Virus record (IMG/VR): IMGVR_UViG_3300030012_002336
Coordinates: 1 to 64,000 of that record
Source of the DNA: a virus
Taxonomy: Duplodnaviria; Caudoviricetes
Direction: 5' to 3' (one strand)
DNA length: 64,000 nucleotides
The notes beneath the pieces were generated by a model. The model searched no databases, had not been told where the DNA came from, and saw nothing but the letters and a program-made list of their open reading frames with translations. The translations under genes were made by a program, and so were the position numbers. Below are positions 12,358 to 35,699 of this stretch, one piece after another; the stretch's first letter is position 1, and each line of letters opens with the position of its first letter.

Positions 12358-12769
12358 TTTAAAAGAATATAAAAAATTAAGAGAACTCCTCCACGGATCT
12401 GAAGAAGATTATGAAGTGGCATGTGAGAATATAAAGAACATAAAAGAAATAACATCTGTTATAAGAATGATGTTTGCTAAATCTTTGACGTTTGGTAAAA
12501 GGCAAGACTTTTGTCAAAAGTTTAATATAGATTACCATAATATCAAAGAATGGAATAAAATGTTTAAAGATCTTGATAATACTTTAGGTATAAGAACTGA
12601 ACAAGAAATCATAGAGTTTGAAATACATGAACAAATGCTCCCTGTTTTTACAAGTACTTGGAGTTTTATTAAAGATGTTAAGATTGAACTTGATTGGGAA
12701 CATAAAAAACCAATTAAAGAATTAACCAAAGCAGAAATGCGTGAAATAGAAGACATTATAAATGATTGA
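12350..12769 (+). CDS. hypothetical helical protein
   Basis: Coupled ORF; N-terminal motif shared with 15197 and 16252. Confidence 0.7.
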   Translation: MISLKEYKKLRELLHGSEEDYEVACENIKNIKEITSVIRMMFAKSLTFGKRQDFCQKFNIDYHNIKEWNKMFKDLDNTLGIRTEQEIIEFEIHEQMLPVFTSTWSFIKDVKIELDWEHKKPIKELTKAEMREIEDIIND

Positions 12770-13931
12770 TATACAAGATAAATTAGCAAGAGCTTGTAAG
12801 TCATTAATATTAAGAGAGCCCTTTTATGGGCTCTTTCTTATTGGACTTAACAAGAAAATAAGAAAGGACGTCCCAACAGCGGGTGTCAGTAAAAATGGTA
12901 TAGGTATACAACTATCTATTAACCCGGATTTCTTTATGGGATTACCAGATGAACACCAGATAGGTCTACTTAAACATGAACTACTGCATGTATCATTTGG
13001 GCATCTTATGATGAGAGACTCTTATCCTAACAAGAAGTTGTTTAATATTGCTGCAGATCTTGAGATCAATCAGTATATAGATAGAAACATGCTTCCTGAA
13101 GGTGGTTTGACTTTAGATAGTTTTGCTGAACTAAAGTTACCAAAGAAAGCCGGTACTAAAAAGTATTATGATTTATTGGAACAAGAGTGCAAGGATAATC
13201 CTTGTCAGTCACTACAATCTATATTAGATCAGATGGATGGTGATAGTCAGTATGATCATAAGACATGGGAAGAGTTTGAAGATCTTACAGAAGCAGAGAA
13301 GAAGCTAGTTGAAAGACAAATTGAACATCAACTAAAAGAAACTGCAGAACAAACTGAAAAGAGAAGAGGAACTATTCCAGGTGAGTTAGCTGAATTAATT
13401 AAAAAGCTAAGAACCATACATCCTCCATCATTTGATTGGAAGGGTTATTTAAAAAGATTTGTGGGTAACTCCGTGTTTACTTTCACAAAGAAGTTGAGAA
13501 GAAAATTCAACAAAAGGTATACAGATAATCCAGGTCTTAAGATCAAACACAAAAATCATATATTGATTGGTGTTGATACTTCTGCATCTGTTAACACGAA
13601 GGAACTAGAACACTTTATGAGTGAAATGGTTCATGTTCAGAAAACAGGACATCAGATAACTGTAGCACAATGTGACACAGGTATTAGTGATATATCCCCT
13701 TTCAATAGTAGAAAGGATTGGCAAATAAAAGGTAGAGGAGGTACATGCTTCCAACCGGTTATTGATCACTTCAATGAAATGAGAGGTAGATATACTGCCC
13801 TTATATATTTAACAGATGGTGAAGCACCTGCTCCAGAGAACTGTCCAAAGAACACATTATGGGTTCTTAGTGCAAGATCTCAGTGGACAGATCATTTACC
13901 AGGGAAAACAATACAATTAAACACGCATTAA
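12762..13931 (+). CDS. zincin-like peptidase + vWA protein (DUF2201-like)
   Basis: HELLH..H; NIAADLEIN; MIDAS DTSAS; GRGGT; LTDG. Confidence 0.9.
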   Translation: MIDIQDKLARACKSLILREPFYGLFLIGLNKKIRKDVPTAGVSKNGIGIQLSINPDFFMGLPDEHQIGLLKHELLHVSFGHLMMRDSYPNKKLFNIAADLEINQYIDRNMLPEGGLTLDSFAELKLPKKAGTKKYYDLLEQECKDNPCQSLQSILDQMDGDSQYDHKTWEEFEDLTEAEKKLVERQIEHQLKETAEQTEKRRGTIPGELAELIKKLRTIHPPSFDWKGYLKRFVGNSVFTFTKKLRRKFNKRYTDNPGLKIKHKNHILIGVDTSASVNTKELEHFMSEMVHVQKTGHQITVAQCDTGISDISPFNSRKDWQIKGRGGTCFQPVIDHFNEMRGRYTALIYLTDGEAPAPENCPKNTLWVLSARSQWTDHLPGKTIQLNTH

Positions 13932-13932
13932 A

Positions 13933-15195
13933 ATGGCACAAGTAAATTTAAATATTGATGAATTAAAAGGTTTTGTAAACCATATAATAAAGAATAATAG
14001 ATTCTTACAAGAGCAAGGGAAGAACCCAGTTGCTGTAGAAGTAGTTGGTGAGTCAGGTATTGGTAAAACATCTGCTGTACTAGATCTAGCTAAAGAAAAT
14101 GAATTAGATTTTGTTAAGCTTAATCTTGCACAGATAGAAGAATTAGGTGACTTAGTTGGTTTTCCTGTTAGACAATTCCAAATGTATAGAGAGAAGCAAG
14201 TATCTAAGAAGATTGATGATCTTCAGTATACAGTAGCTCAGAGAGCTGCAGCATCTGCACAAGTTGCAGACTCTACTATAACCAAGAAAATTGGTCAGTG
14301 GGTAGATGAACTTGCAGTTGAAGAGTATCTTAGAAAAGGATGGAAGATGACCGGTAAGAATAGAATGTCTTACTGTGCACCAGAGTGGATTGCTGATAAG
14401 AAGAAAGGTGGTATCCTACTTCTTGATGACTGGAACCGTGCAGATGTTAGATTTATTCAGGCTGTAATGGAGTTGGTTGACAGACAGCAGTATATATCAT
14501 GGTCTTTACCGGCTGATTGGCATATTATACTAACTAGTAATCCAGATAATGGAGACTACATGGTTAATAGTATTGACTCAGCACAAAAGACTAGATATAT
14601 TACTGCTAACCTGAAGTTTGATGCAAATGTTTGGGCAAGATGGGCTGAAGAGCAGCACATAGATACACGTTGTATTAACTTCCTGTTACTGCATCCTGAG
14701 TTAGTAAATAAAGAAACTAATGCAAGATCCATCACAGCATTCTTCAACTCTATTTCAAGTTTTGAAAAGTTTGAAGATGACTTGAGCATGATCCAAATGA
14801 TTGGTGAAGGTTCTGTTGGGGACACATTTGCTTCTATGTTTACTACATTTATTAACAACAAACTGGACAAGCTGGTCACACCTAAAGATATGTTGACACA
14901 TGAAAACCAAGATTGGATTATTGGGGAACTAAATAGTGTTCTAGGAAAAGGTGACACATATAGAGCAGATATTGCATCTACTCTTGCGACAAGGTTGGCT
15001 AACTATTCAGTTGTTTATGCTAATGAAAATACTGTAACACCAAAGATTAATGAAAGATTGATAGCATTATGTACTAAAGATGTATTTGCTAATGATCTAA
15101 AGTATCTTATTGTTAGAACTATTTTCAATGGTAATAAAACTAAGTTTAACAAGATGATGATGAATCCAGAGATCATCAAAATGACAATGAAATAA
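13933..15195 (+). CDS. MoxR-type AAA+ ATPase
   Basis: GESGIGKT, DLVGFP, LLDDWNRAD, TSNP, DSAQKTR; adjacent to vWA gene. Confidence 0.9.
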   Translation: MAQVNLNIDELKGFVNHIIKNNRFLQEQGKNPVAVEVVGESGIGKTSAVLDLAKENELDFVKLNLAQIEELGDLVGFPVRQFQMYREKQVSKKIDDLQYTVAQRAAASAQVADSTITKKIGQWVDELAVEEYLRKGWKMTGKNRMSYCAPEWIADKKKGGILLLDDWNRADVRFIQAVMELVDRQQYISWSLPADWHIILTSNPDNGDYMVNSIDSAQKTRYITANLKFDANVWARWAEEQHIDTRCINFLLLHPELVNKETNARSITAFFNSISSFEKFEDDLSMIQMIGEGSVGDTFASMFTTFINNKLDKLVTPKDMLTHENQDWIIGELNSVLGKGDTYRADIASTLATRLANYSVVYANENTVTPKINERLIALCTKDVFANDLKYLIVRTIFNGNKTKFNKMMMNPEIIKMTMK

Positions 15196-19745: not shown

Positions 19746-20456
19746 ATGAACGTAAAAGAAATACAAGAAAAATTTATGAATAAGCTCTCAGATGCTGCTG
19801 AGAGTCCATATGAAAGCTGGGTAGATGCACTTTGGAATACAGTAAATTCTAAAGCATTCTCTGATCCACTATTAGCGTTAGCTAAGGAAGTTGATAATGG
19901 TAAGAAGTTTACACCAAAATTTCCTGATTTACTTAAGGCATATGAGATGTGTCCATATAGAGATCTTAAAGTTGTTATTGTTGGACAAGATCCATACCCC
20001 CAAGAAGGAGTTGCTGACGGAATAGCATTTAGTTGTTCAAAGACTAACAAGGAACAGCCATCATTAAGATACATCTTTGATGAATTACAAAGACAGTATC
20101 CAGATGCAACCAGAGACTGTGATCTAAGTAGATGGTCTAAGCAAGGCGTGCTTATGTTAAACACAGCACTTACATGTGAAGTAGATAACATTGGCGCTCA
20201 TGTTAATATATGGAAGCATTGGAGTCAATGTATATTTGGACATATTTTAACTGATCATCCAAAGATACTTGAGTTTGTATTTATGGGTGCTAAAGCAAAA
20301 CCTTTTGCAAAATATATTCCTAATGATCACAATAAACATTTTGTTGCACATCCTGCAGCTGCTGCATACCGTGGTGGTAAATGGGATTCAGACAATCTAT
20401 TTAAAAAGATAAATGAAAACTTAATTAATAATGGTGAAGAACCAATAAATTGGTAA
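19746..20456 (+). CDS. ung: uracil-DNA glycosylase, family 1
   Basis: VVIVGQDPYP, ADGIAFS, QGVLMLNTALT, HP motif. Confidence 0.93.
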   Translation: MNVKEIQEKFMNKLSDAAESPYESWVDALWNTVNSKAFSDPLLALAKEVDNGKKFTPKFPDLLKAYEMCPYRDLKVVIVGQDPYPQEGVADGIAFSCSKTNKEQPSLRYIFDELQRQYPDATRDCDLSRWSKQGVLMLNTALTCEVDNIGAHVNIWKHWSQCIFGHILTDHPKILEFVFMGAKAKPFAKYIPNDHNKHFVAHPAAAAYRGGKWDSDNLFKKINENLINNGEEPINW

Positions 20457-20683
20457 CTATGAGTTCAAGAAGTAAATGGAAATTATATTATTTTGCATTA
20501 TTTTTATGGTATTTATTTTTAGCCTCTCTTGTTGGTTGCGAAAAGCAACTTGAAGAACAGATATGTTGTGATTGGGATGCTACAAATTTTGATCCTGAAT
20601 ATAATGGTCACAATGTAAATCAACTATACTTTACAAACAGTTCATTATGTAATGATGATGTTTGTATCTATGAAAACTATTAA
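20450..20683 (+). CDS. putative Cys-rich lipoprotein
   Basis: Hydrophobic leader with lipobox LVG-C; CCDWDATNFDP. Confidence 0.6.
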   Translation: MVTMSSRSKWKLYYFALFLWYLFLASLVGCEKQLEEQICCDWDATNFDPEYNGHNVNQLYFTNSSLCNDDVCIYENY

Positions 20684-20685
20684 AT

Positions 20686-22590
20686 ATGAATCACTGGGTA
20701 ATGGATTATGAAACCCTAGTGGACTGTTTTGTTGGTGTATTTAAACACTACAAGACTGAAGAAACTAAAGTCTTTGCTATATGTAAACAGCGTAATGACT
20801 TTAGTAAGTTCCTAGAGTTTCTTAAAGAAAATACGGAAAATAAAGAGTGGCATATATCCTACAATGGATTAGCATTTGATGCACAGATCACTCATTATAT
20901 TATAAAACATTACAAAGATTGGAAATCAATGAATGGAAAAGACATTGCTCGTGAGATATATTCTTATGCACAGAGTTGTATAGATAAAGCTCATAGTGGT
21001 GAGTTTCAAGAGTATCCTGAATGGCATATGTGTATTAAACAAATAGATGTATTTAAATTAAATCATTGGGATAACATGGCCAAGAGATCTAGTCTTAAAT
21101 GGATAGAGTATACTATGGACTGGGATAACATCTTAGATATGCCTATACATCATGATACAGAGATAAATACACAGGATCAGTTAGATCTAGTTATTGAATA
21201 CTGTATTAATGATGTAGAAGCAACTAAGGAGATCTTTAATAGATGTAAACCTTTGATTGCATTAAGAAAGAACTTAACTGAAAAGTATAATATTAATTTG
21301 TTTAGTGCATCTGAACCAAGAATAAGTAAAGAAATCTTTGCTTACTATCTTAGTAAAGAACTAGATATGCCACGGTATGAAGTTAAGAAGTTAAGAACAT
21401 TTAGAAATGTAATTAAAGTTAAAGATCTTATACTAGAATATATTAAGTTTGATACAGTAGAGTTTAAATCTTTACTAGAAAGGTTTAGAACAGTTGAAGT
21501 TAATCCTAATTATACTAAAGGTGGATTTAGATCTTCCGTTGTATATAAAGGTGTAAAGACTGACTTTGGATTAGGTGGTGCTCATGGTGCTACTGCACCT
21601 GGAGTATATGAGTCTGATACTAAGAGAGTTATAATGTCTTCTGATGTTACTAGCTTCTATCCTAACTTAGCTATTGTTAATAAGTATGCACCGGCTCATA
21701 TACCTAAAGAAAAGTTTTGTGAATTATATCAATGGTTCTTTGATGAAAGAAAGAAGATACCAAAAAGTGATCCAATGAACTATGTATATAAAATTATCTT
21801 AAACTCAACTTACGGGTTAAGTAATGATAAGAACTCTTTTCTATATGATCCTCAGTTTACTATGTTTATTACTGTTAATGGTCAACTTACACTAATGATG
21901 TTGTATGAAATGATTATGACTAGGATACCAGATGCTGTAGCACTTATGCAAAATACTGATGGTGTAGAAACTATTATACCACGTGAGCACATAGATGCTT
22001 ATATGGAAGTTTGCAAAGAGTGGGAACAGATAACCGGTCTTAATCTTGAACATGATCAGTATAGTAAACTAGTATTAGCTGATGTAAATAACTATATAGC
22101 TGTTGATACTAATGGTAAGTCTAAATGTAAAGGTAGATTTGAATATGAAGGTTTAGCTCTTCATAAGAACAAGTCTAAACTAATCATTCCAAAAGCATTA
22201 TATGCTTACTTTGTTGATGGAACTTTACCAGAACATACAATAAAACATAATAGAAATATTTTAGATTATTGTATTGGAGCTAAATCTAAGGGTGCATGGA
22301 GACAGCACTCTGTATATGTTAAGGATGGTGTTGCACATAAAGATGTGCTACAAAAAATTAACAGATACTACATCTCTAACAAAGGTTGTAAGATAGTTAA
22401 AATAAATAAAAGTGATAATAGAGAAATTCAATTAGAGTCTGGACAATGGGTCCAAACTGTAATGAATAAGATAGAAAATAAAAAATGGTCAGACTATGAC
22501 ATTAATGAGAAATATTATCTAAATGCAATTGAGAAAGAGATTAATAATATAATTGGTGTGAAAAATAATCAATTATTATTGTTTGAATAA
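20686..22590 (+). CDS. DNA polymerase family B with 3'-5' exonuclease
   Basis: DYET, YNGLAFD, YCIND, SDVTSFYPN, KIILNSTYG, NTDG. Confidence 0.93.
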   Translation: MNHWVMDYETLVDCFVGVFKHYKTEETKVFAICKQRNDFSKFLEFLKENTENKEWHISYNGLAFDAQITHYIIKHYKDWKSMNGKDIAREIYSYAQSCIDKAHSGEFQEYPEWHMCIKQIDVFKLNHWDNMAKRSSLKWIEYTMDWDNILDMPIHHDTEINTQDQLDLVIEYCINDVEATKEIFNRCKPLIALRKNLTEKYNINLFSASEPRISKEIFAYYLSKELDMPRYEVKKLRTFRNVIKVKDLILEYIKFDTVEFKSLLERFRTVEVNPNYTKGGFRSSVVYKGVKTDFGLGGAHGATAPGVYESDTKRVIMSSDVTSFYPNLAIVNKYAPAHIPKEKFCELYQWFFDERKKIPKSDPMNYVYKIILNSTYGLSNDKNSFLYDPQFTMFITVNGQLTLMMLYEMIMTRIPDAVALMQNTDGVETIIPREHIDAYMEVCKEWEQITGLNLEHDQYSKLVLADVNNYIAVDTNGKSKCKGRFEYEGLALHKNKSKLIIPKALYAYFVDGTLPEHTIKHNRNILDYCIGAKSKGAWRQHSVYVKDGVAHKDVLQKINRYYISNKGCKIVKINKSDNREIQLESGQWVQTVMNKIENKKWSDYDINEKYYLNAIEKEINNIIGVKNNQLLLFE

Positions 22591-22600
22591 GTTTTATTAT

Positions 22601-22634
22601 TATATTTGCAATGGGTACGGCTTCCGTGCCCATT
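22601..22634 (+). promoter_or_regulatory. -7 element followed by 11-bp hairpin
   Basis: TATATTTG 22601-22608; AATGGGTACGG-CTT-CCGTGCCCATT 22610-22634. Confidence 0.6.
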
Positions 22635-22649
22635 TAAAACCAATAAATT

Positions 22650-23465
22650 ATGGGATATACAAGACCAAGAAAAACTACTAAAGATTATTTGGTAGCAGCA
22701 CCGCTACCTAATCATGGAAAAACTTATACAGTTATTCCTCATAAAGATGTTATAGAGACAACTAAAACTCTATTAGACAACAGTGGATTTCAAATCACTA
22801 AAGAACTTTACAGAGCAAACATGAATGCTAAAGTAGCACAAGGTGTTTATCACCTTGCTTCAAATCAAGATGAAGAAATGGGGATGATGTTTGCTTGGAC
22901 TAATTCTTATGATAAAAGTACACGTTTTCAGTGTGCTGTAGGAGCTTTCGTAAATGTATGTAGTAATGGTATGTTATGTGGAGACATGGCAAACTATGCT
23001 AGAAAACATACAGGTAAAGCAGATCATGATATTCATACTCAAATAAGTTCACAAATTAAGTCAGCTAATAAGTATTATACTAAGTTAATTGATGATAAGA
23101 ATCAAATGAGAAAAATATTCTTACCTAAAAAAGATCAAGCAGAATTAGTTGGAAGATTATTCTTAGATGAAGAGATTATTGATTCATCACAAGTTTCTTG
23201 TATAAAAGCAGAAATGAAAGAACCATCTTATGATTATAAAGCTGATCTTAATAATGCTTGGACATTCTACAATCATATAACACATGCACTTAAAAAGTCA
23301 CATCCACGTACATGGATGAGTGATCAAGTTAAGTTTCATGAGTTTATGACTGCAGAATTACTTAGTCAAGCAGCACTTAAGGAGCAGGATACTAGTTGGC
23401 CTGTAGATTTTATAGCAGATATGGAAGCTCAAGAGTATGATACATTTGAAGAGTTTAAGATATAA
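22650..23465 (+). CDS. DUF932-like protein
   Basis: TYTVIPH; NSYDKS...GAFVNVCSNGM; NAWTFYN. Confidence 0.75.
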   Translation: MGYTRPRKTTKDYLVAAPLPNHGKTYTVIPHKDVIETTKTLLDNSGFQITKELYRANMNAKVAQGVYHLASNQDEEMGMMFAWTNSYDKSTRFQCAVGAFVNVCSNGMLCGDMANYARKHTGKADHDIHTQISSQIKSANKYYTKLIDDKNQMRKIFLPKKDQAELVGRLFLDEEIIDSSQVSCIKAEMKEPSYDYKADLNNAWTFYNHITHALKKSHPRTWMSDQVKFHEFMTAELLSQAALKEQDTSWPVDFIADMEAQEYDTFEEFKI

Positions 23466-24301
23466 TGCCAATAAAATATCAAAAAACTAGAACATTAGTT
23501 ACTAAGACAAATAACAATAGTAGTGACTGCATAGCACCAAATATAATTTATGGGTGCTTTGGAGGCTGTGTAGACACCTATTGTTATATGTCTAGGTTTA
23601 ATGGTGATAGAGTATTTGTTAACAAAAATGTTAATGATATATTTAATTCCGTAGTAGAATGGGAAAAATCTTATAATAAAGTTCCTAATCAACAGGATCC
23701 TGTTTATACTATGGTGGACATTGCTTGTAATTCAGATTTAGTTTTGATGCAGAAGCATATGCCAGAACCACTTCATGATTATCTTAAAAGGTATGATGAT
23801 CATCAGCAGCTTAATAGTACTATGGCTACTAAGTATCCGAGTCTACTTAAGTTAGATGTAAATCATTTTAATAAAAGGCCACGTGTGCGTGTTAGTCTTA
23901 TGCCTCAAGAGTATTCTAATATTCTAGAACCTAAAATGCAGAAGATATCATCAAGAATAGATGATGTTAATAGATTAAAGGATCTAGGATGGGAAGTACA
24001 CTTAAACTATTCACCTCTTGTATTTTATCCAGGATGGAGTAAAGAGTATGAAAGTTTATTTAAAGAAGTAAAAGATAAAGCCGGTGAGAATAAATGTGAA
24101 GTTATTGCACTTACTAATCATGTTCATCAAATGAATAGAAGTAGTGAAGAAGCAAGAGAGTTAATGAAATATTCTGATGAGATCAAAAATGCTAACGGTA
24201 TAATGCGTTATCCAATACGCCAGAAAACAAGAGCTTTAGCTAATTTTAAAATGATCTACAGTAAATATTTTAATTTACAAACTATTAGATACATATTTTA
24301 A
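23465..24301 (+). CDS. spore photoproduct lyase-like radical SAM protein
   Basis: GCFGGCVDTYCY, IACNSD, ATKY, RVSL, LEP, SPLVFYPGW are collinear with SplB motifs. Confidence 0.8.
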   Translation: MPIKYQKTRTLVTKTNNNSSDCIAPNIIYGCFGGCVDTYCYMSRFNGDRVFVNKNVNDIFNSVVEWEKSYNKVPNQQDPVYTMVDIACNSDLVLMQKHMPEPLHDYLKRYDDHQQLNSTMATKYPSLLKLDVNHFNKRPRVRVSLMPQEYSNILEPKMQKISSRIDDVNRLKDLGWEVHLNYSPLVFYPGWSKEYESLFKEVKDKAGENKCEVIALTNHVHQMNRSSEEARELMKYSDEIKNANGIMRYPIRQKTRALANFKMIYSKYFNLQTIRYIF

Positions 24302-24302
24302 A

Positions 24303-24389
24303 ATGACTGATGATCAAAAAGAAGCTATTGTCAGATTAATATTAGTAATAATATTATTAATAGTATTTGTACTAGTTCAATTGAAATGA
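24303..24389 (+). CDS. 28-aa single-TM peptide (not in ORF track)
   Basis: MTDDQKEAIVRLILVIILLIVFVLVQLK. Confidence 0.5.
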   Translation: MTDDQKEAIVRLILVIILLIVFVLVQLK

Positions 24390-24390
24390 A

Positions 24391-24457
24391 AGGGGGTCTT
24401 GGTAGCGTTAACCCCCTCTCTGTTCTCTGTAAAATTCAACCTGCACGATTACAGAGA
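24391..24457. terminator. tandem hairpins where the two gene blocks converge
   Basis: AGGGGGT/ACCCCCT and TCTCTGTAA/TTACAGAGA inverted repeats. Confidence 0.55.
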
Positions 24458-24473
24458 TATATAAGAAGTGTTA

Positions 24474-24608
24474 TTATCTACCTTGACCTCTATACTTTTT
24501 AGTATAGTTGCTACCTCCCTTATTGAATGTAGTTCTACTCTTAGCATGTCTGCCATGAGACTTTCTACTATTAGGTGAAAATGTAAATGTATTTTTCCTT
24601 GCCGCCAT
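24474..24608 (-). CDS. 44-aa basic protein ending KKYRGQGR (not in ORF track)
   Basis: MAARKNTFTFSPNSRKSHGRHAKSRTTFNKGGSNYTKKYRGQGR; TAATG coupling; this ending recurs in phage small proteins. Confidence 0.8.
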   Translation of the reverse strand: MAARKNTFTFSPNSRKSHGRHAKSRTTFNKGGSNYTKKYRGQGR

Positions 24609-24988
24609 TATGCTCTTGTAAAGAATGCATATACTACATTTGTAACTGCAGTATCATACTTTAATTTTGCACCTGTTCCATCTTCAACTACAAAAAATGC
24701 AAAATCACCAACTCCTAATTTAGTTAAGTTAGTGCTTCCACCATTATCAGTAACAAGTATATTACCAGTTCCAGTACCGCCACCATTAGTTCCTGTATTA
24801 TGAACAAATAAATATGTATCACCTTGACTTGTAGGAATAATTGACTGATTTAAAGAAGCATATGTCGTTATACCAGCTGAAGTTACTGTGCTTTCTTGTA
24901 CAGTAATAACAGGATTTAAGGTTATAGACACAGGATCACTTTGACCAGTTATAGTACCTGTAAGATTAAATAAAGTTTGTAAATTCAT
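24608..24988 (-). CDS. small beta-rich putative virion protein (paralog A)
   Basis: TGQSD...YLFVHNTG...LGVGDFAF...VVYAFF. Confidence 0.75.
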   Translation of the reverse strand: MNLQTLFNLTGTITGQSDPVSITLNPVITVQESTVTSAGITTYASLNQSIIPTSQGDTYLFVHNTGTNGGGTGTGNILVTDNGGSTNLTKLGVGDFAFFVVEDGTGAKLKYDTAVTNVVYAFFTRA

Positions 24989-25011
24989 TTTATTATTATT
25001 TTATATTATTA

Positions 25012-25416
25012 TTAATGTCTTTTTAGATAAGCATAAACGTATGTAGTAACTGAGTTATCATATACAGCCTTTAAACCTGCTTGTGCTATCAAAGGTATAA
25101 ACATTGCATCACCAACATTTAAATGTGCTATATTTGTTCCAGCACCATTTGTAAGTATAACTTTACCCCCAGTACTAAGATCTCCATTTGCACCAACATT
25201 TCTAACATATACATACTGTGTAGAACCTCCAGCTGCTGGTGCAGCAGATGTTCCTAGTATTTCAAAAGGTGTACCATTTACGGTATTTCTTGATGCAGAT
25301 GTTAGAGAAGGATTTTCAACGTTTAATTCAAAGTCAGTAAAATTAATACCTACTGAATCACTTTGACCTGTTAAACTTCCGTTTAAACTTAAACTAAATT
25401 TTACTTTATCAGCCAT
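25012..25416 (-). CDS. small beta-rich putative virion protein (paralog B)
   Basis: TGQSD...YVYVRNVG...LNVGDAMF...YVYAYL. Confidence 0.75.
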   Translation of the reverse strand: MADKVKFSLSLNGSLTGQSDSVGINFTDFELNVENPSLTSASRNTVNGTPFEILGTSAAPAAGGSTQYVYVRNVGANGDLSTGGKVILTNGAGTNIAHLNVGDAMFIPLIAQAGLKAVYDNSVTTYVYAYLKRH

Positions 25417-25434
25417 TTTTTTAAATTTTAAATA

Positions 25435-25836
25435 TTATTGTTTCTTCTTATTAAATTTTTCAACAGATCTACCACCAAAATAGGCACCAATCACTGTTAT
25501 TAATACTAACTGTAGAAGATCAGTCCACTTTTCTTCTACTGTAAATGTTAATGCACCAGCATCAATAAAGATCAATAACATAGTACATACTATCAAAAAT
25601 ATAAGAACCATAGGTCTTACATTTTTACTTAACCAACTATCAGAATTCATATCTGCCGTCCAACGGTCAGTTATATTTTTTTCCATTTGAGCTTCATGAT
25701 TCATGATTAGCTCTTTTAGTTTTCTTTTAGCGTCTAGTTTTTCTTCGTCTGTTGTTACTAAGTTATCTATTACACCACCAACTGATTCTATCAAGTTACT
25801 TCCGGCACTTGAAAAAATCTTTTTTAGTATACCCAT
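25435..25836 (-). CDS. putative holin (GTA 3TM holin-like)
   Basis: LVTTDEEK, SDSWLSKNVRP, TM segments, GAYFGGRS. Confidence 0.75.
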   Translation of the reverse strand: MGILKKIFSSAGSNLIESVGGVIDNLVTTDEEKLDAKRKLKELIMNHEAQMEKNITDRWTADMNSDSWLSKNVRPMVLIFLIVCTMLLIFIDAGALTFTVEEKWTDLLQLVLITVIGAYFGGRSVEKFNKKKQ

Positions 25837-25852
25837 ACTCTAAGTTTTAAAT

Positions 25853-25999
25853 TTATAATACACCGTTAGGGCCCACAGATTTTGATATAGGTGAGTGATA
25901 TTCACCACCACACATCATCATGTTAGATCCACCGCATTTATACATTTTCTTTTTTTTCTTGTCTTTCTTTTTTTTCTTTTTTTTATACATCATCATCAT
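25853..25999 (-). CDS. 48-aa poly-Lys/Met protein (not in ORF track)
   Basis: MMMMYKKKKKKKDKKKKKMYKCGGSNMMMCGGEYHSPISKSVGPNGVL; ATGA coupling. Confidence 0.75.
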   Translation of the reverse strand: MMMMYKKKKKKKDKKKKKMYKCGGSNMMMCGGEYHSPISKSVGPNGVL

Positions 26000-26229
26000 A
26001 ATAAACTATTTGGTCCCATTTGCATTCCATATGGACAACCACAACCTTGTACCTGTCCACCTTCAGCTTTTTTAAAGCTCTTTAATGTTTTAGCTAAGTT
26101 ACATCTACGTTTTGCTTTTGTAGATGGAGGACTCTTACAATATTCTGAGATACTTTTTCCTTCAGCTTTAGCAGCTGCAGTCAAAGCACCTGGCTTCTTT
26201 ATTGCTTTTTTTATCCAATTCTTAGCCAT
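25996..26229 (-). CDS. small basic protein (KNWI..AIKKPGAL type)
   Basis: Lys/Ala-rich, ends GPNSLL. Confidence 0.8.
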   Translation of the reverse strand: MAKNWIKKAIKKPGALTAAAKAEGKSISEYCKSPPSTKAKRRCNLAKTLKSFKKAEGGQVQGCGCPYGMQMGPNSLL

Positions 26230-26456
26230 TACTTCTTTTCAAAGAATCTATCATAGGCACCTTCCTTAACTGTTTTTACAAAAAGTTCAAATTGATCTTT
26301 TGTGAATTCAGTGTAACCTTCATCTTCTCCTCCAACAATTACCTTATCAGATTCAGTTGAGATGTCAATTGCTGGACAACTCTTACAGCTAGCACAAAAA
26401 GTCATTTGTGATCTGTTTGCACTAATTTTTACATTTTTTAATCCTTCTAATTCCAT
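26229..26456 (-). CDS. small protein with DUF397-like C-terminus
   Basis: CASCKSC; FTKDQFELFVKTVKEGAYD. Confidence 0.65.
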   Translation of the reverse strand: MELEGLKNVKISANRSQMTFCASCKSCPAIDISTESDKVIVGGEDEGYTEFTKDQFELFVKTVKEGAYDRFFEKK

Positions 26457-26460
26457 TGGT

Positions 26461-26829
26461 TTATACTTTTTTAAATTTAGCGTAATTAACTACACATGCA
26501 GCAGTATCAGAAATTAATTCTAATCCTTCTCCACCATCACAACATAAAAACATGAAGCTACCTGGAAAGAGTTTAGCATATGTATTGTTTGCCACATCTT
26601 GAACAGTTACAAAATTGGCAAGATCTGTATTTTGAATGAATATATAAGTATCAGCAGCAGTATTTGGAATAATCTCTGTAGCAGATGTTGGTATTGACAT
26701 AGATTTTGATTCTACATCAGTATTATCAAAATTTACAGTGTCTAAAACTGTGCTATTTAAACTAAATATACCACTAACTGTGTCAGCAGTATTAAGGTTT
26801 AATGAGAGATTAAGTGCTTGTGTTGCCAT
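26461..26829 (-). CDS. small beta-rich putative virion protein (paralog C)
   Basis: TYIFIQNTD...KLFPGSFMF...VNYAKF. Confidence 0.75.
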   Translation of the reverse strand: MATQALNLSLNLNTADTVSGIFSLNSTVLDTVNFDNTDVESKSMSIPTSATEIIPNTAADTYIFIQNTDLANFVTVQDVANNTYAKLFPGSFMFLCCDGGEGLELISDTAACVVNYAKFKKV

Positions 26830-27011
26830 TATATTTCAAATCCAAAGTTAAAAATCATAAATCTAAACTTTTTACAACTGCTGCCTGTGTTTTTACATTT
26901 CCAGCAAGGACAGTACATTAATTCAAATATTGTCCATGTACCTAGTCTAAAATTTATCTCATACTTTTCTTTCTTATTTCCTGATCTCCAGGAATTAATC
27001 CAATTTATCAT
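26829..27011 (-). CDS. small protein with CxxC motifs
   Basis: WINSW...RLG...CPCWKC...FRFMIFNFGFEI; coupled to next gene. Confidence 0.7.
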   Translation of the reverse strand: MINWINSWRSGNKKEKYEINFRLGTWTIFELMYCPCWKCKNTGSSCKKFRFMIFNFGFEI

Positions 27012-27036
27012 AATAAAATAATTTATGTTATATTAT

Positions 27037-27051
27037 TAATATACAAAAAAA
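27037..27051 (-). promoter_or_regulatory. putative late promoter (T-run)GTATATTA
   Basis: Same motif at 33560 and 35887; variant at 61038. Confidence 0.6.
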
Positions 27052-27061
27052 TAAGTGAAAA

Positions 27062-28135
27062 TTAAAGTATGATATAGTTTATTCCAAACTTGAAATCATG
27101 CCAGTCACGGTTCCAATATTTATTATATTTTCCCTCAATAAAAATACCTAAGTTCTTATTGATCTTATAACCAAATATTAAACCACCAGAATAATCTATC
27201 CAATTGCCACCATTAAAATTATGATAAGAGTATTCACCCCCTGTATCCAAATGCACGGGTAGTAGGTTCGCCCAAGAATGAAACCATATTGTTTTAGTGT
27301 AGTGATAGTAGTCTAAACCAACTACTAGAGAATGACACCACTGAACAGGTAATGCATCCTTTTTTGATTTCACATAATCATTAAGAACTTGGGGGACCAC
27401 TACCTCTTCCCATACTTCACTACTTGTAGCCACGACCGCTCCACTAGGGTCTAAGTAGCTTATTCCTGTTGGGTCAAACCCAATTGTGTAGCCTTCTTCT
27501 AAAGCAAGGTTTGTGTAGTGTATGTTTCCGTTAGATAGCACCCACTCAGACAAAGGGTCATAACCGTAAGGTTCTGATATTCTTTGTACAGCTCCTGCAG
27601 TAACTGATAGTTTTCTACCTATCTTTTGTCTATATCGTTGTGACGCTTCCATGTATTCTACATCAGCAAAGCCGTCTTGTAAGTACTCTATCTTAACCAC
27701 CCATCTATCTGCCAAGTATCGTAAAAAGTGATGTTGGTCTACATAAGAGTCACCCTGTTGTCTTTTGTAATCTGCCTCAAACAAAAACTCAAATCCTCTA
27801 GTTCGTCCAATAGTAGCGGCATCAGAGTATGATGTTTCTGTACCATCTTTGAATGTGTTAGCTTTATTCTCGTATCCAAATCTTTGTATTTTTCTTACAC
27901 CTACAGTAAAAGCATAGTCAAATGGAGTTTTTATTACATCGGTTTGAAGTCCATCTAATATAGAATATGTATTCTGATCTGAAATAGAAGTACCACCATT
28001 TACTGCAGCATAGAATGTAGAGAACTTAAAAGTTTTCTTAAGTCCTGTTTTAAACTTGCTATCCTGAGCACAACACTTTTTAGGTGCTATACAAGACAAT
28101 AATAGTAATAATATGGTCAGTAGTATTTTTTTCAT
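27062..28135 (-). CDS. putative outer-membrane beta-barrel protein
   Basis: N-terminal signal or lipoprotein leader, alternating aromatic beta-strands, C-terminal FKFGINYIIL strand. Confidence 0.7.
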   Translation of the reverse strand: MKKILLTILLLLLSCIAPKKCCAQDSKFKTGLKKTFKFSTFYAAVNGGTSISDQNTYSILDGLQTDVIKTPFDYAFTVGVRKIQRFGYENKANTFKDGTETSYSDAATIGRTRGFEFLFEADYKRQQGDSYVDQHHFLRYLADRWVVKIEYLQDGFADVEYMEASQRYRQKIGRKLSVTAGAVQRISEPYGYDPLSEWVLSNGNIHYTNLALEEGYTIGFDPTGISYLDPSGAVVATSSEVWEEVVVPQVLNDYVKSKKDALPVQWCHSLVVGLDYYHYTKTIWFHSWANLLPVHLDTGGEYSYHNFNGGNWIDYSGGLIFGYKINKNLGIFIEGKYNKYWNRDWHDFKFGINYIIL

Positions 28136-33839: not shown

Positions 33840-35699
33840 ATGGAATTGAATAACAAGATTCTAAGTGATATCACTGTCCATATGAAATATGCACGGTATA
33901 ATCCTGAATTAAAAAGAAGAGAGACCTGGGAAGAACTGGTCACTAGAAATATGAATATGCACCTTAAAAGATATCCTAAACTGTCAGATGATATAAAAGG
34001 GGCCTATGACTATGTACTTGATAAAAAAGTACTACCATCTATGAGATCTATGCAGTTTGGTGGCAAACCAATAGAAATTTCTCCTAATAGAATATATAAC
34101 TGTGCTTATCTTCCTATAGATAGTGTAGATGCATTTAGTGAAACTATGTTTTTACTACTTGGAGGAACCGGTGTTGGTTACTCTGTACAAAGACATCATG
34201 TAGATAAACTACCACTAATTAATAAACCATATAAAAAAAGAACAAGACGTTACCTAATTGGTGACTCTATAGAGGGCTGGGCAGATGCTATTAAGATGTT
34301 AATGAAATCTTATTTAAATGGTAAAAGCTCACGTATAGTATTTGACTATTCAGATATCAGACCAAAAGGTGCTAGACTAGTAACATCAGGTGGTAAAGCT
34401 CCTGGACCACAACCATTAAAAGAATGTATACTTAAGATTACAGGTGTTCTTCAAAATAAAGAAGATGGTGATTCACTTAGTACACTTGAAGCACATGATA
34501 TCATATGTTACATAGCTGATGCTGTATTAGCTGGTGGTATTAGACGTGCTGCTCTTATTAGCTTATTTAGTGCTGATGATGATGAAATGATATCTTGCAA
34601 GTCTGGTGCATGGTGGGAACTTAACCCTCAGCGTGGTAGAGCTAATAACTCTGCTGTTCTTATGAGACATAAGATAACTAAATCTTTCTTTATGGATCTA
34701 TGGAAAAGAGTTGAGTTAAGTAAAGCCGGTGAACCTGGTATCTACTTTAATAATGATAAAGACTGGGGTACAAACCCATGTTGTGAAATTGCTTTACGTC
34801 CTTTTCAGTTCTGTAACTTATGTGAAGTTAATGTAAGTAATATTGAGTCTCAAGAAGATCTTGAACTAAGAGTCAAAGCTGCTGCATTTATAGGGACACT
34901 TCAAGCAGGATATACTAACTTCCACTATCTCAGACCAGTATGGCAAGAGACTACAGAAAAAGATGCACTAATTGGTGTATCTATGACTGGTATAGGATCT
35001 GGTAGAATACTTGGTTATGATATGGAAGCTGCTGCTAAAGTGGTTAATAAAGAGAATTCACGTGTTGCTAAATTAATTGGTATCAGAAGAGCTGCTAGAA
35101 CAACAACAGTAAAACCTGCTGGTACAACATCATTAACATTAGGGACTAGCTCTGGTATACATGCATGGCATAATGATTACTACATTAGAAGAATACGTGT
35201 AGGTAAGAATGAAGCTATATATACATACCTTGCTAACAATCATCCTGCTCTTGTAGAGGATTGTGTGTTCCGTGGTCATGATACTGCTGTAATAAGCATA
35301 CCTCAATCAGCACCTAAAGGTTCTATTCTTAGAACTGAGTCTGCTTTTCAATTGCTTGAAAGAGTAAAAAGAGTGGCAACTGAGTGGGTGAAGACTGGAC
35401 ATAGATCTGGATCTAATACTCATAATGTATCTGCTACTATCAGTTTAAAAGATGAAGACTGGGAGTTAGCTGGTGACTGGATGTGGAAAAATAGAGATCA
35501 TTACAATGGTCTAGCTGTTCTTCCATATGACGGAGGTACTTATACCCAAGCTCCTTTTGAAGATATTTCTAAAGAAAAGTATGATGAAATGGCTAAGTCA
35601 TTAATGGATATTGATCTATCTCAGATCATTGAAGAAAATGATGAAACCAATCTAACAGGAGAGCTAGCATGTGCTGGTGGTAATTGTGAAGTCAAGTAA
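33840..35699 (+). CDS. nrdJ: class II (B12-dependent) monomeric ribonucleotide reductase
   Basis: KYAR..RRETW, YNC, GGIRRAA, TNPCCEI, FCNL, VKPAGT, C-terminal ACAGGNCEV. Confidence 0.93.
   Translation: MELNNKILSDITVHMKYARYNPELKRRETWEELVTRNMNMHLKRYPKLSDDIKGAYDYVLDKKVLPSMRSMQFGGKPIEISPNRIYNCAYLPIDSVDAFSETMFLLLGGTGVGYSVQRHHVDKLPLINKPYKKRTRRYLIGDSIEGWADAIKMLMKSYLNGKSSRIVFDYSDIRPKGARLVTSGGKAPGPQPLKECILKITGVLQNKEDGDSLSTLEAHDIICYIADAVLAGGIRRAALISLFSADDDEMISCKSGAWWELNPQRGRANNSAVLMRHKITKSFFMDLWKRVELSKAGEPGIYFNNDKDWGTNPCCEIALRPFQFCNLCEVNVSNIESQEDLELRVKAAAFIGTLQAGYTNFHYLRPVWQETTEKDALIGVSMTGIGSGRILGYDMEAAAKVVNKENSRVAKLIGIRRAARTTTVKPAGTTSLTLGTSSGIHAWHNDYYIRRIRVGKNEAIYTYLANNHPALVEDCVFRGHDTAVISIPQSAPKGSILRTESAFQLLERVKRVATEWVKTGHRSGSNTHNVSATISLKDEDWELAGDWMWKNRDHYNGLAVLPYDGGTYTQAPFEDISKEKYDEMAKSLMDIDLSQIIEENDETNLTGELACAGGNCEVK

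Follow-up and report, generated by a model that had tools for sequence, protein, structure and literature searches.

The 64,000-nucleotide stretch of viral DNA analysed here (the window; positions 1 to 64,000 of IMG/VR virus record IMGVR_UViG_3300030012_002336) carries a gene whose 278-residue product is, by fold, sequence and conservation of catalytic residues, a member of the spore photoproduct lyase (SPL) family of radical S-adenosylmethionine (SAM) proteins. This protein is most likely a phage DNA-repair enzyme. As its specific role we propose the light-independent, radical-SAM reversal of a thymine lesion of the spore photoproduct (SP) type after infection, a function to which we give an even chance. 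The gene belongs to a large, compact and phage-specific family of SPL-like proteins of about 280 residues that is known here only from metagenomic phage contigs and is encoded mostly in replication modules. It is a phage-borne SPL-family variant with a variable cluster loop that is abundant in uncultured aquatic phages, and no description of it was found in the papers searched. That the CX3CX4C loop binds a cluster, what the substrate is, and when and where the enzyme acts are matters that we infer.

A preliminary description of the window, made from its letters alone, had taken the protein for an SPL-like enzyme whose cluster motif is non-canonical, and had placed it in a phage. The first point is borne out by the Pfam assignment, the alignment to a crystallised SPL and the fold match given below. 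The second agrees with the origin of the window in a virus record (73.9 kb in full, 63% complete), with its replication genes and holin, and with relatives of about 114 kb, one of which has direct terminal repeats.

Family membership and predicted fold

The open reading frame (ORF) for the 278-residue protein begins with the first start codon that follows an in-frame stop, and one base of its ATG also belongs to the stop of the preceding ORF (22650-23465). Because no start codon lies in frame further 5', the short N-terminus is real. PF20903 (SPL) is the sole Pfam family found in the protein, with 64.6 bits (E 9.3e-18; gathering cut-off 27 bits) and residues 10-224 aligned to profile positions 67-272 of 338. 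The best NCBIfam model is TIGR03886, which describes SPL family proteins of non-spore-formers (134.9 bits, profile positions 63-346); the equivalog cut-off of 437.55 bits for the full 346 positions is not reached, and the first 62 profile positions are without counterpart. The general Pfam Radical_SAM model PF04055 did not detect the gene and detected none in five related genomes that are at least 96% complete, and PHROGs gave no meaningful match for the protein (best 0.076, chance level).

A HMMER comparison with all PDB chains found 4fhc, the SPL of Geobacillus thermodenitrificans (Gt), at E 3.7e-10. A profile built from an alignment of 58 family members (A1) gave an E of 4e-38 with SPL chains, where it covered positions 85-366 and reached the C-terminal Tyr339 (the chain index of 4fhc minus 27 gives the published Gt numbering). 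AlphaFold2, run on the same alignment, predicted a structure with a local distance difference test score (pLDDT) of 96.8 and a template modelling score (pTM) of 0.93. When this model was compared with the PDB by Foldseek, six SPL entries came out on top (E 1e-13 to 1e-15, query TM-score (TMq) 0.74-0.78), the best at TMq 0.78 and E 2.5e-15, with 18-19% identity to SPL. The next fold was that of pyruvate formate-lyase activating enzyme (E 1.5e-4, TMq 0.54), and radical SAM folds occupied ranks 7-21. Among predicted viral structures there was no close counterpart, the best match having a TMq of 0.64. The protein has the features expected of the radical SAM superfamily, namely a three-cysteine loop, an aromatic residue before the third cysteine and residues at the SAM positions; the cluster itself is predicted.

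Conservation of catalytic and substrate-contacting residues

Equivalent residues were taken from the HMMER alignment to 4fhc, from the A1 profile alignment and from an alignment with 12 true SPLs. Their conservation was followed in 172 distinct close relatives (group A) and in 66 distinct diverse phage homologues from IMG/VR (group B). The published contacts quoted here are those given in excerpts of the structural paper on SPL (PMC3467042).

Cluster cysteines C90, C94 and C97 of the Gt enzyme correspond to C31, C35 and C40. The segment gcfggcvdtycym aligns to GCMGHC--HYCYL of 4fhc with two residues inserted between the second cysteine and the aromatic residue, so that the reading of CFGGCVDTYC (residues 31-40) in the preliminary description as a CX3CX2C motif with a two-residue insertion is upheld by the gap in the HMMER alignment. 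The tyrosines that it had singled out in YCY (residues 39-41) likewise align to the relay tyrosines Y96 and Y98, and Y39 and Y41 are both invariant in groups A and B. IACNSD (residues 86-91), which it took for the hydrogen-donor cysteine segment, aligns within iacnsdlv to AACTSDIV of 4fhc, the segment that holds Cys140 (C141 in Bacillus subtilis). This makes C88 the equivalent of the hydrogen donor and S90 and D91 those of S142 and D143, which bind the SAM amino group; C88 and D91 are found in every one of the 172 group A and 66 group B sequences. The same description had given the segment as ASCTSD in Bacillus; what is seen in 4fhc is AACTSD, and among the true SPLs sampled L185 has these letters too. 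In the remaining 11 alanine stands at the corresponding position of the segment, in agreement with the Clostridium type (PMC3467042).

Further SAM contacts are kept as well. Residues K123 and S144 stand at the places of K174, which holds the SAM carboxylate, and S195, which also contacts SAM (PMC3467042), and both are invariant in groups A and B. On the substrate side, R193 and E268 of the Gt enzyme contact thymine O4 and Y339 hydrogen bonds O4 and N3 of the 5'-dihydrothymine (PMC3467042); their equivalents R142, E212 and Y276 are invariant apart from one gap. The backbone of the S76-S79 loop of SPL grips the 3'-thymine (PMC3467042) and corresponds to N16-S19, with S19 invariant in both groups save one gap. 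The catalytic and thymine-contacting residues are thus invariant throughout groups A and B, single gaps excepted, and group A sequences diverge by up to about 25% yet keep every catalytic residue.

Variation of the cluster loop

The CX3CX4C spacing is present in all 172 sequences of group A, which makes it more than a chance occurrence, and CX3CX2C in 65 of the 66 sequences of group B and in 12 of 12 true SPLs. When 58 distinct near-full-length representatives were compared, 38 had CX3CX2C, 13 had CX3CX4C and one had CX3CX3C; for the remaining six a script found no middle cysteine. The recurring form among relatives is C-x-G-G-C-x-x-[ST]-Y-C, and still other loops occur in the same family (CX11CX2C in P0150, CX8CX2C in P0270), so that the range extends over X2, X3 or X4 after the second cysteine and X3, X8 or X11 after the first. 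The nearest row to the window protein in the tree described below, P0123, has CX3CX2C at 51% identity, CX3CX4C is also found in distant branches, and at least eight changes of spacing are required on the 62-row tree. A single origin of CX3CX4C was rejected by an approximately unbiased (AU) test in which 11 X4 rows were held together (p 0.00049), the group having been named after the tree was seen.

The aromatic residue before the third cysteine is kept across all spacing variants. Because spacing alternates among relatives while this residue is retained, the insertion is tolerated and recurrent. The motif is no sign of special chemistry: it alternates with CX3CX2C down to relatives of 51% identity, and on the sequences compared CX3CX4C is a tolerated loop-length variant and no pointer to new chemistry.

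The unusual spacing could instead mean that the loop is unable to hold a cluster and that the protein has lost catalysis, being a remnant that binds DNA. The departure from the radical SAM consensus and the failure of the general Radical_SAM model to find anything in the five related genomes agree with such a remnant. We regard it as highly improbable, since catalytic residues stay invariant over 172 distinct sequences, CX3CX4C recurs in distant branches, and confidence in the AlphaFold2 model stays high across the loop (pLDDT 95 for residues 31-40). Altered spacings also work elsewhere. For example, ThiC has CX2CX4C, HmdB has CX5CX2C and QueE has CX14CX2C, and QueE variants with long inserts exist.

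Four of the short relatives (P0155, P0159, P0184 and P0264) start with an intein-like C-terminal block (...VYNFHV..ESYIANN..HN) right before the third cluster cysteine, and their ORFs are C-extein parts only. This arrangement suggests an intein inserted within the radical SAM cysteine motif of these proteins.

Phylogenetic position

A quick IQ-TREE tree was built from 63 rows, among them the window protein, 39 of the 57 other A1 rows, P0231, the 12 true SPLs and L186. Representatives shorter than 240 residues were left out, as were the degenerate P0165, P0201, P0229, P0234, P0248 and P0256 and the truncated P0188 and P0239. A 62-row tree omits L186 (506 residues in a wrong reading frame, branch length 4.86 in the 63-row tree). 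The root was placed by assumption on P0259 and P0261, the most distant matches, and one full TIGR03886 member is present.

All 12 true SPLs group together with a support of 100 in the Shimodaira-Hasegawa-like approximate likelihood ratio test (SH-aLRT) and, joined by the SPL-like rows P0225 and P0255, make up one of the two clades (SH-aLRT 94). The window protein lies deep in the other clade (SH-aLRT 93), together with TIGR03886-type rows and all short forms; inner branches are weak, with 20 of 60 under 80. Placement in the SPL clade had been set beforehand as a test of the assignment, and the outcome is divided: the protein falls outside the canonical, Firmicutes SPL clade and within the wider SPL family (SH-aLRT 93 vs 94). 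From this placement, from its scores below both NCBIfam equivalog cut-offs, from the missing N-terminal residues and from the replaced phosphate contacts, the protein and the spore enzyme are not orthologues.

Proposed repair of a thymine lesion and its alternatives

Repair is favoured because the catalytic and lesion-reading residues are kept, because the thymidylate synthases ThyA and ThyX are absent from near-complete relatives, because the match to the one DNA-modifying homologue is weak, and because cellular relatives are tied to DNA damage. For the last point, the literature as represented by excerpts describes splB genes preceded by LexA sites in alpha- and beta-proteobacteria (PMC3323433), operon links of SPL-family genes with ImuB-C (PMC3765255) and UV-C induction of an SPL-family gene in the non-sporulating actinobacterium Curtobacterium (PMC12029717). 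The absence of a photolyase FAD domain from all five near-complete relatives is also counted in its favour, as is the position of the gene among those for replication and repair, both in the window and in diverse phages. The invariant cysteine-tyrosine relay suits the need of a lyase that has to give back a hydrogen atom.

The mechanism that we propose is that of a compact radical SAM DNA lyase made together with the phage replication genes. A [4Fe-4S] cluster on C31, C35 and C40, carried by a loop of ten residues where eight are usual, would reductively cleave SAM, and the resulting 5'-deoxyadenosyl radical would take a hydrogen from a saturated thymine gripped at its O4/N3 edge by R142, E212 and Y276. 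The methylene bridge to the adjacent thymine would then break, C88 would give back a hydrogen atom, and the Y39/Y41 relay would reset the enzyme. The likely substrate would be the spore photoproduct or a close thymine-thymine lesion in the injected phage genome (or in host DNA), repaired in the dark.

The preliminary description had offered as an alternative that the enzyme modifies phage bases. On this account it would be a post-replicative base-modifying radical SAM enzyme like gp53 of Pseudomonas phage M6, one that shields phage DNA from host nucleases and has no part in repair. Excerpts of its description (PMC8989533) present M6 gp53 as a radical SAM isomerase of SPL-like type whose substrate is DNA-bound glycinyl-thymidine. 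A location among replication genes also suits post-replicative modification, the recurrent neighbour DUF932 is of no known function, and at one distant locus (L082:3285-5835) a class II glutamine amidotransferase (GATase_6) and an Amidoligase_2 protein are encoded directly upstream of the SPL-like gene and DUF932. Base modification is nevertheless weakened, and we hold it to be unlikely while still carrying it. The five relatives that are at least 96% complete have no ThyA-family protein and no ThyX, while M6 has a thymidylate synthase homologue and a pyridoxal phosphate (PLP) enzyme; the known 5-hydroxymethyldeoxyuridine route to thymidine hypermodification would thus be without its starting enzyme. 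The family profile matches gp53 weakly (probability 91.8%, 13% identity over 168 columns), gp53 is gapped at the hydrogen-donor cysteine segment, and the alignment ends before the C-terminal tyrosine. A tblastn search with the window protein found nothing in 50,697 phage records, M6 included, and no nucleotide-modification family recurs in the 25 largest clusters of neighbouring genes, ten of which were scanned against Pfam.

A number of observations weigh against repair of SP as such. The protein scores 63 bits with TIGR04070, the true SPL equivalog and its second NCBIfam model, where the cut-off is 400; for comparison, above-cut-off matches to TIGR04070 occur in 21 of 61 sampled genomes of one phylum. 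It also stands outside the true SPL clade. The residues R273 and K309, which contact the intra-lesion phosphate in the Gt enzyme according to the same excerpts (PMC3467042), are arginine and lysine in 12 of 12 true SPLs and are replaced by T217 and I246, and the beta-hairpin is four residues shorter than that of SPL. About 68 N-terminal residues are absent, which is about half of SPL's alpha/beta domain at the N-terminus, described as four strands and three helices (PMC3467042). The alignment begins at Gt residue 69, and the 12 true SPLs carry 54-100 residues ahead of the first residue of the window protein. Spore photoproduct is known from DNA that is dry, frozen or bound by small acid-soluble proteins (SASP), as stated in parts of one paper (PMC12029717), and the literature search found no paper showing its formation in phage heads in sea water. 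With M6 gp53 there is a case of an SPL-like radical SAM protein whose action on phage DNA is modification and not repair (PMC8989533, excerpts). Both the activity of the CX3CX4C protein and its cluster binding are predicted. For TIGR03886, the closest cellular clade, we know of no proven substrate.

Some of these observations would be accommodated if the same radical lyase chemistry were directed at another thymine-derived lesion or cross-link, in the whole of the TIGR03886 and phage clade. This clade is apart from true SPL, half of the N-terminal domain is missing, and there is a signature of its own at the DNA-backbone contacts (T217, R248 and K254 vs R273 and K309). T217, K241, R248, Y249 and K254 are invariant in groups A and B; T217, R248 and K254 are common to the TIGR03886 member P0182 and all short forms, R248 and K254 being clade-specific basic residues, and the trio looks like a clade-specific mode of holding DNA. 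In addition, SP is not expected in hydrated B-DNA, as an excerpt of the same paper has it (PMC12029717). We consider another lesion rather unlikely, given that everything that SP cleavage needs is kept (the readers equivalent to R193, E268 and Y339, the 3'-thymine loop and the hydrogen-donor cysteine) and that no alternative substrate is known for any member.

Reversal of an SP-type lesion could be placed in an ecological setting. Sunlight is a main cause of phage decay in surface waters, and the remedies known to us for this damage consist of photolyases of the host and a small number of excision enzymes encoded by phages. A widespread phage enzyme of the SPL type would add a dark route of direct reversal, and would make testable the question of which UV lesions arise in DNA at the packing density of a capsid. 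Tentatively, and with more doubt than we attach to the reaction itself, we suggest that tailed phages of sunlit waters commonly acquire an SP-type lesion in their tightly packed, partly dehydrated genomes and reverse it in the dark immediately after injection by means of this minimal lyase, which is present on hundreds of contigs from uncultured phages. If true, viruses would encode a counterpart of photoreactivation that needs no light, and there would be a first indication that the chemistry of the "spore" photoproduct is of importance beyond spores and dried cells. The family also offers a point of entry to the TIGR03886 proteins of non-spore-formers, which are uncharacterised.

Distribution of the phage family

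A word-indexed protein search returned 1096 proteins at E<=0.001 among 1344 candidates; among the 120 matches listed, identity was 77-100%, all contained PF20903 and the sources were marine surveys. An exhaustive search of 1.84 billion representatives at 50% identity gave 188 at E<=0.001, 103 at 1e-10 and 27 at 1e-30. Most of the 188 are about 280 residues long and aligned from their first residues, and longer representatives (330-451 residues) align only from residue 70-150 on. Ten of the long representatives were scanned with the NCBIfam models, and two passed the TIGR03886 cut-off (P0182, with 566.6 bits, and P0188) and none that of TIGR04070.

IMG/VR contributed 154 close loci, and with a diverse alignment (A2) as query at least 596 loci are found. 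No cultured carrier was found, as tblastn searches of 50,697 GenBank phage records with the window protein and a diverse homologue (L093) gave no match at E<=0.001. A blastn search of phage records with window positions 20001-28000 gave one 44-base match only, in a Vibrio phage. Our search of the literature on SPL in phages or viromes turned up nothing describing this family of about 280 residues in the papers searched. Marine, seawater or aquatic metagenomes from 11 or more studies contain the stretch (rows X1-X16). Within 22650-24301, contigs from four RNA or possibly-RNA runs match parts of the DUF932 gene only (85-95% likeness), with none on the SPL-like gene, which speaks neither for nor against its transcription. 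An assignment of the host from five contigs of metagenome-assembled genomes was given up: their labels conflict (Pseudomonadales, Flavobacteriales, Campylobacteraceae, Sphingomonadaceae, Clostridium) and the contigs are mis-binned. One of the five is 114,697 bases long, the size of a whole phage genome.

Genomic context

The SPL-like gene has a replication and repair setting (Table 1). Upstream on the plus strand lie genes for a superfamily 2 (SF2) helicase, a DnaB-like helicase, AAA_24, a primase and RusA and, nearer to it, for a DUF2201 protein with an AAA ATPase, a PD-(D/E)XK nuclease, a uracil-DNA glycosylase (UDG)-superfamily protein, a DNA polymerase (phrog_1252) and DUF932. The corresponding genes of diverse phages are found among genes for SF2 helicase, DnaB, AAA_24, primase-like proteins and PolA. 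Positions 12762-15195 (plus strand) encode the DUF2201 metallopeptidase/von Willebrand factor A (VWA) protein followed by the AAA ATPase, and the label "HNH endonuclease" given by PHROGs to the DUF2201 protein is unsupported by Pfam.

Table 1. Coordinates in the window of the SPL-like gene, its functional segments and two flanking features
Feature	Position	Strand	Basis
DUF932 gene	22650..23465	+	PF06067, 66.3 bits
SPL-like gene, minimal SPL-family radical SAM protein	23465..24301	+	ORF, 278 aa; Pfam, NCBIfam, AlphaFold2, fold search
Loop N16-N-N-S-S-D21, equivalent of SPL S76-S79 loop	23510..23527	+	4fhc alignment
Predicted cluster loop C31-FGG-C35-VDTY-C40 (CX3CX4C); Y39, aromatic before third Cys	23555..23584	+	HMMER alignment to 4fhc
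Y41, right after cluster loop	23585-23587	+	alignment to Y98 of 4fhc
I86-A-C88-N-S90-D91, putative hydrogen-donor Cys and SAM amino-group binders (Gt C140, S142/D143)	23720..23737	+	alignment
K123 (Gt K174), R142 (Gt R193), S144 (Gt S195)	23831..23896	+	alignments; invariant in groups A and B
E212 (Gt E268), T217 at place of Gt R273	24098..24115	+	alignments; invariant in groups A and B
Beta-hairpin region K241-N-A-N-G-I-M-R248-Y249...K254; I246 at place of Gt K309	24185..24226	+	alignment segments
Y276 in C-terminal IRYIF (Gt Y339)	24290..24292	+	profile alignment ending at chain position 366
G+C-rich inverted repeat, terminator-like on both strands	24391..24417	.	folding energy

Among close loci, 55 of 80 have DUF932 near the SPL-like gene, and among diverse loci 13 of 81 (L001-L162), in varying order. 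At 54 of the 80 close loci it lies within 2 kb on the same strand, with one further off; it is directly downstream at 37, directly upstream at one (as in the window) and 300-2000 bp away at 16. It is absent from 16 close loci whose flanks reach 2 kb or more on each side and from 30 diverse loci with ample flanks. The link between the two genes recurs over deep divergence and is not obligatory. A role of DUF932 as a partner of the SPL-like protein, or as a stand-in for its missing N-terminal domain, was considered and found no support: its AlphaFold2 model (pLDDT 86.8) had no PDB match at E<=0.001, and the prediction of a complex of the two proteins returned a score of 0.00 and "no answer".

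Right after the stop of the SPL-like gene there is a hydrophobic ORF of 28 codons (24303-24389, plus strand). The inverted repeat that follows has a folding energy of -16.2 kcal/mol on the plus strand (z -2.96) and -20 kcal/mol on the minus strand (z -5.64), is not listed by a consensus terminator scanner, and marks the point where the replication module and the lysis/structural module converge. Beyond it the converging minus strand carries a holin gene (25435-25836) and very large ORFs; those at 35931-63959 and on to position 73878 of the full record encode 1925, 5225, 1214, 1162, 991 and 2087 residues. PHROGs returned nothing for nine of ten structural-side proteins scanned. The 1925- and 1214-residue proteins have no PHROG match. 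Three minus-strand ORFs of 122-134 residues (24608-24988, 25012-25416 and 26461-26829) are alike by eye and without PHROG match, and they probably encode paralogous proteins of the virion or the lysis module. A 48-residue ORF (25853-25999, minus strand) that begins MMMMYKKKKKKKDKKKKKMYKCGG, a run of lysines, adjoins the holin gene, and a gene resembling class II (B12-type) ribonucleotide reductase lies on the plus strand at 33840-35699 within the minus-strand block.

Comparison with known systems

The best understood relative is SplB of Bacillus and Geobacillus (4FHC, TIGR04070). Both proteins have a partial TIM-barrel radical SAM fold with a beta-hairpin, and the cluster cysteines, the Y96/Y98 pair, Cys140, the SAM-binding S142, D143, K174 and S195 and the thymine readers R193, E268 and Y339 of SplB are all matched in the phage protein. 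They differ in that SplB has CX3CX2C on an eight-residue loop whereas the phage protein has CX3CX4C, and in that the phage gene belongs to a replication module and is not a sporulation gene. The proteins of TIGR03886 share with the phage family a clade in the tree, the T217/R248/K254 signature and a link to DNA damage in the literature. The full member P0182, however, has threonine where the phage proteins keep the hydrogen-donor cysteine. To our knowledge no biochemical function is known for TIGR03886.

Gp53 of phage M6 is the only known DNA-modifying SPL-like enzyme in the excerpted account (PMC8989533). Like the window protein it is a phage-encoded, SPL-like radical SAM protein, and it acts on thymine derivatives in DNA. 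It differs in its 480 residues, in a canonical CTVGCAFC motif and in being without the hydrogen-donor cysteine segment. Its gene stands in a cluster for hypermodification that also encodes a ThyA homologue, a PLP enzyme and a kinase, whereas the five near-complete relatives of the window phage are without ThyA and ThyX.

As for the loop itself, ThiC, HmdB and QueE resemble the phage protein in having three cysteines on one loop at an altered spacing, where a [4Fe-4S] cluster is still bound. These are unrelated families, whereas here the spacing varies inside one family. The SPL-like phage proteins constitute a natural experiment in cluster-loop length for radical SAM enzymology, with spacing variants that sit on a scaffold of about 280 residues, the smallest SPL-like one in this analysis.

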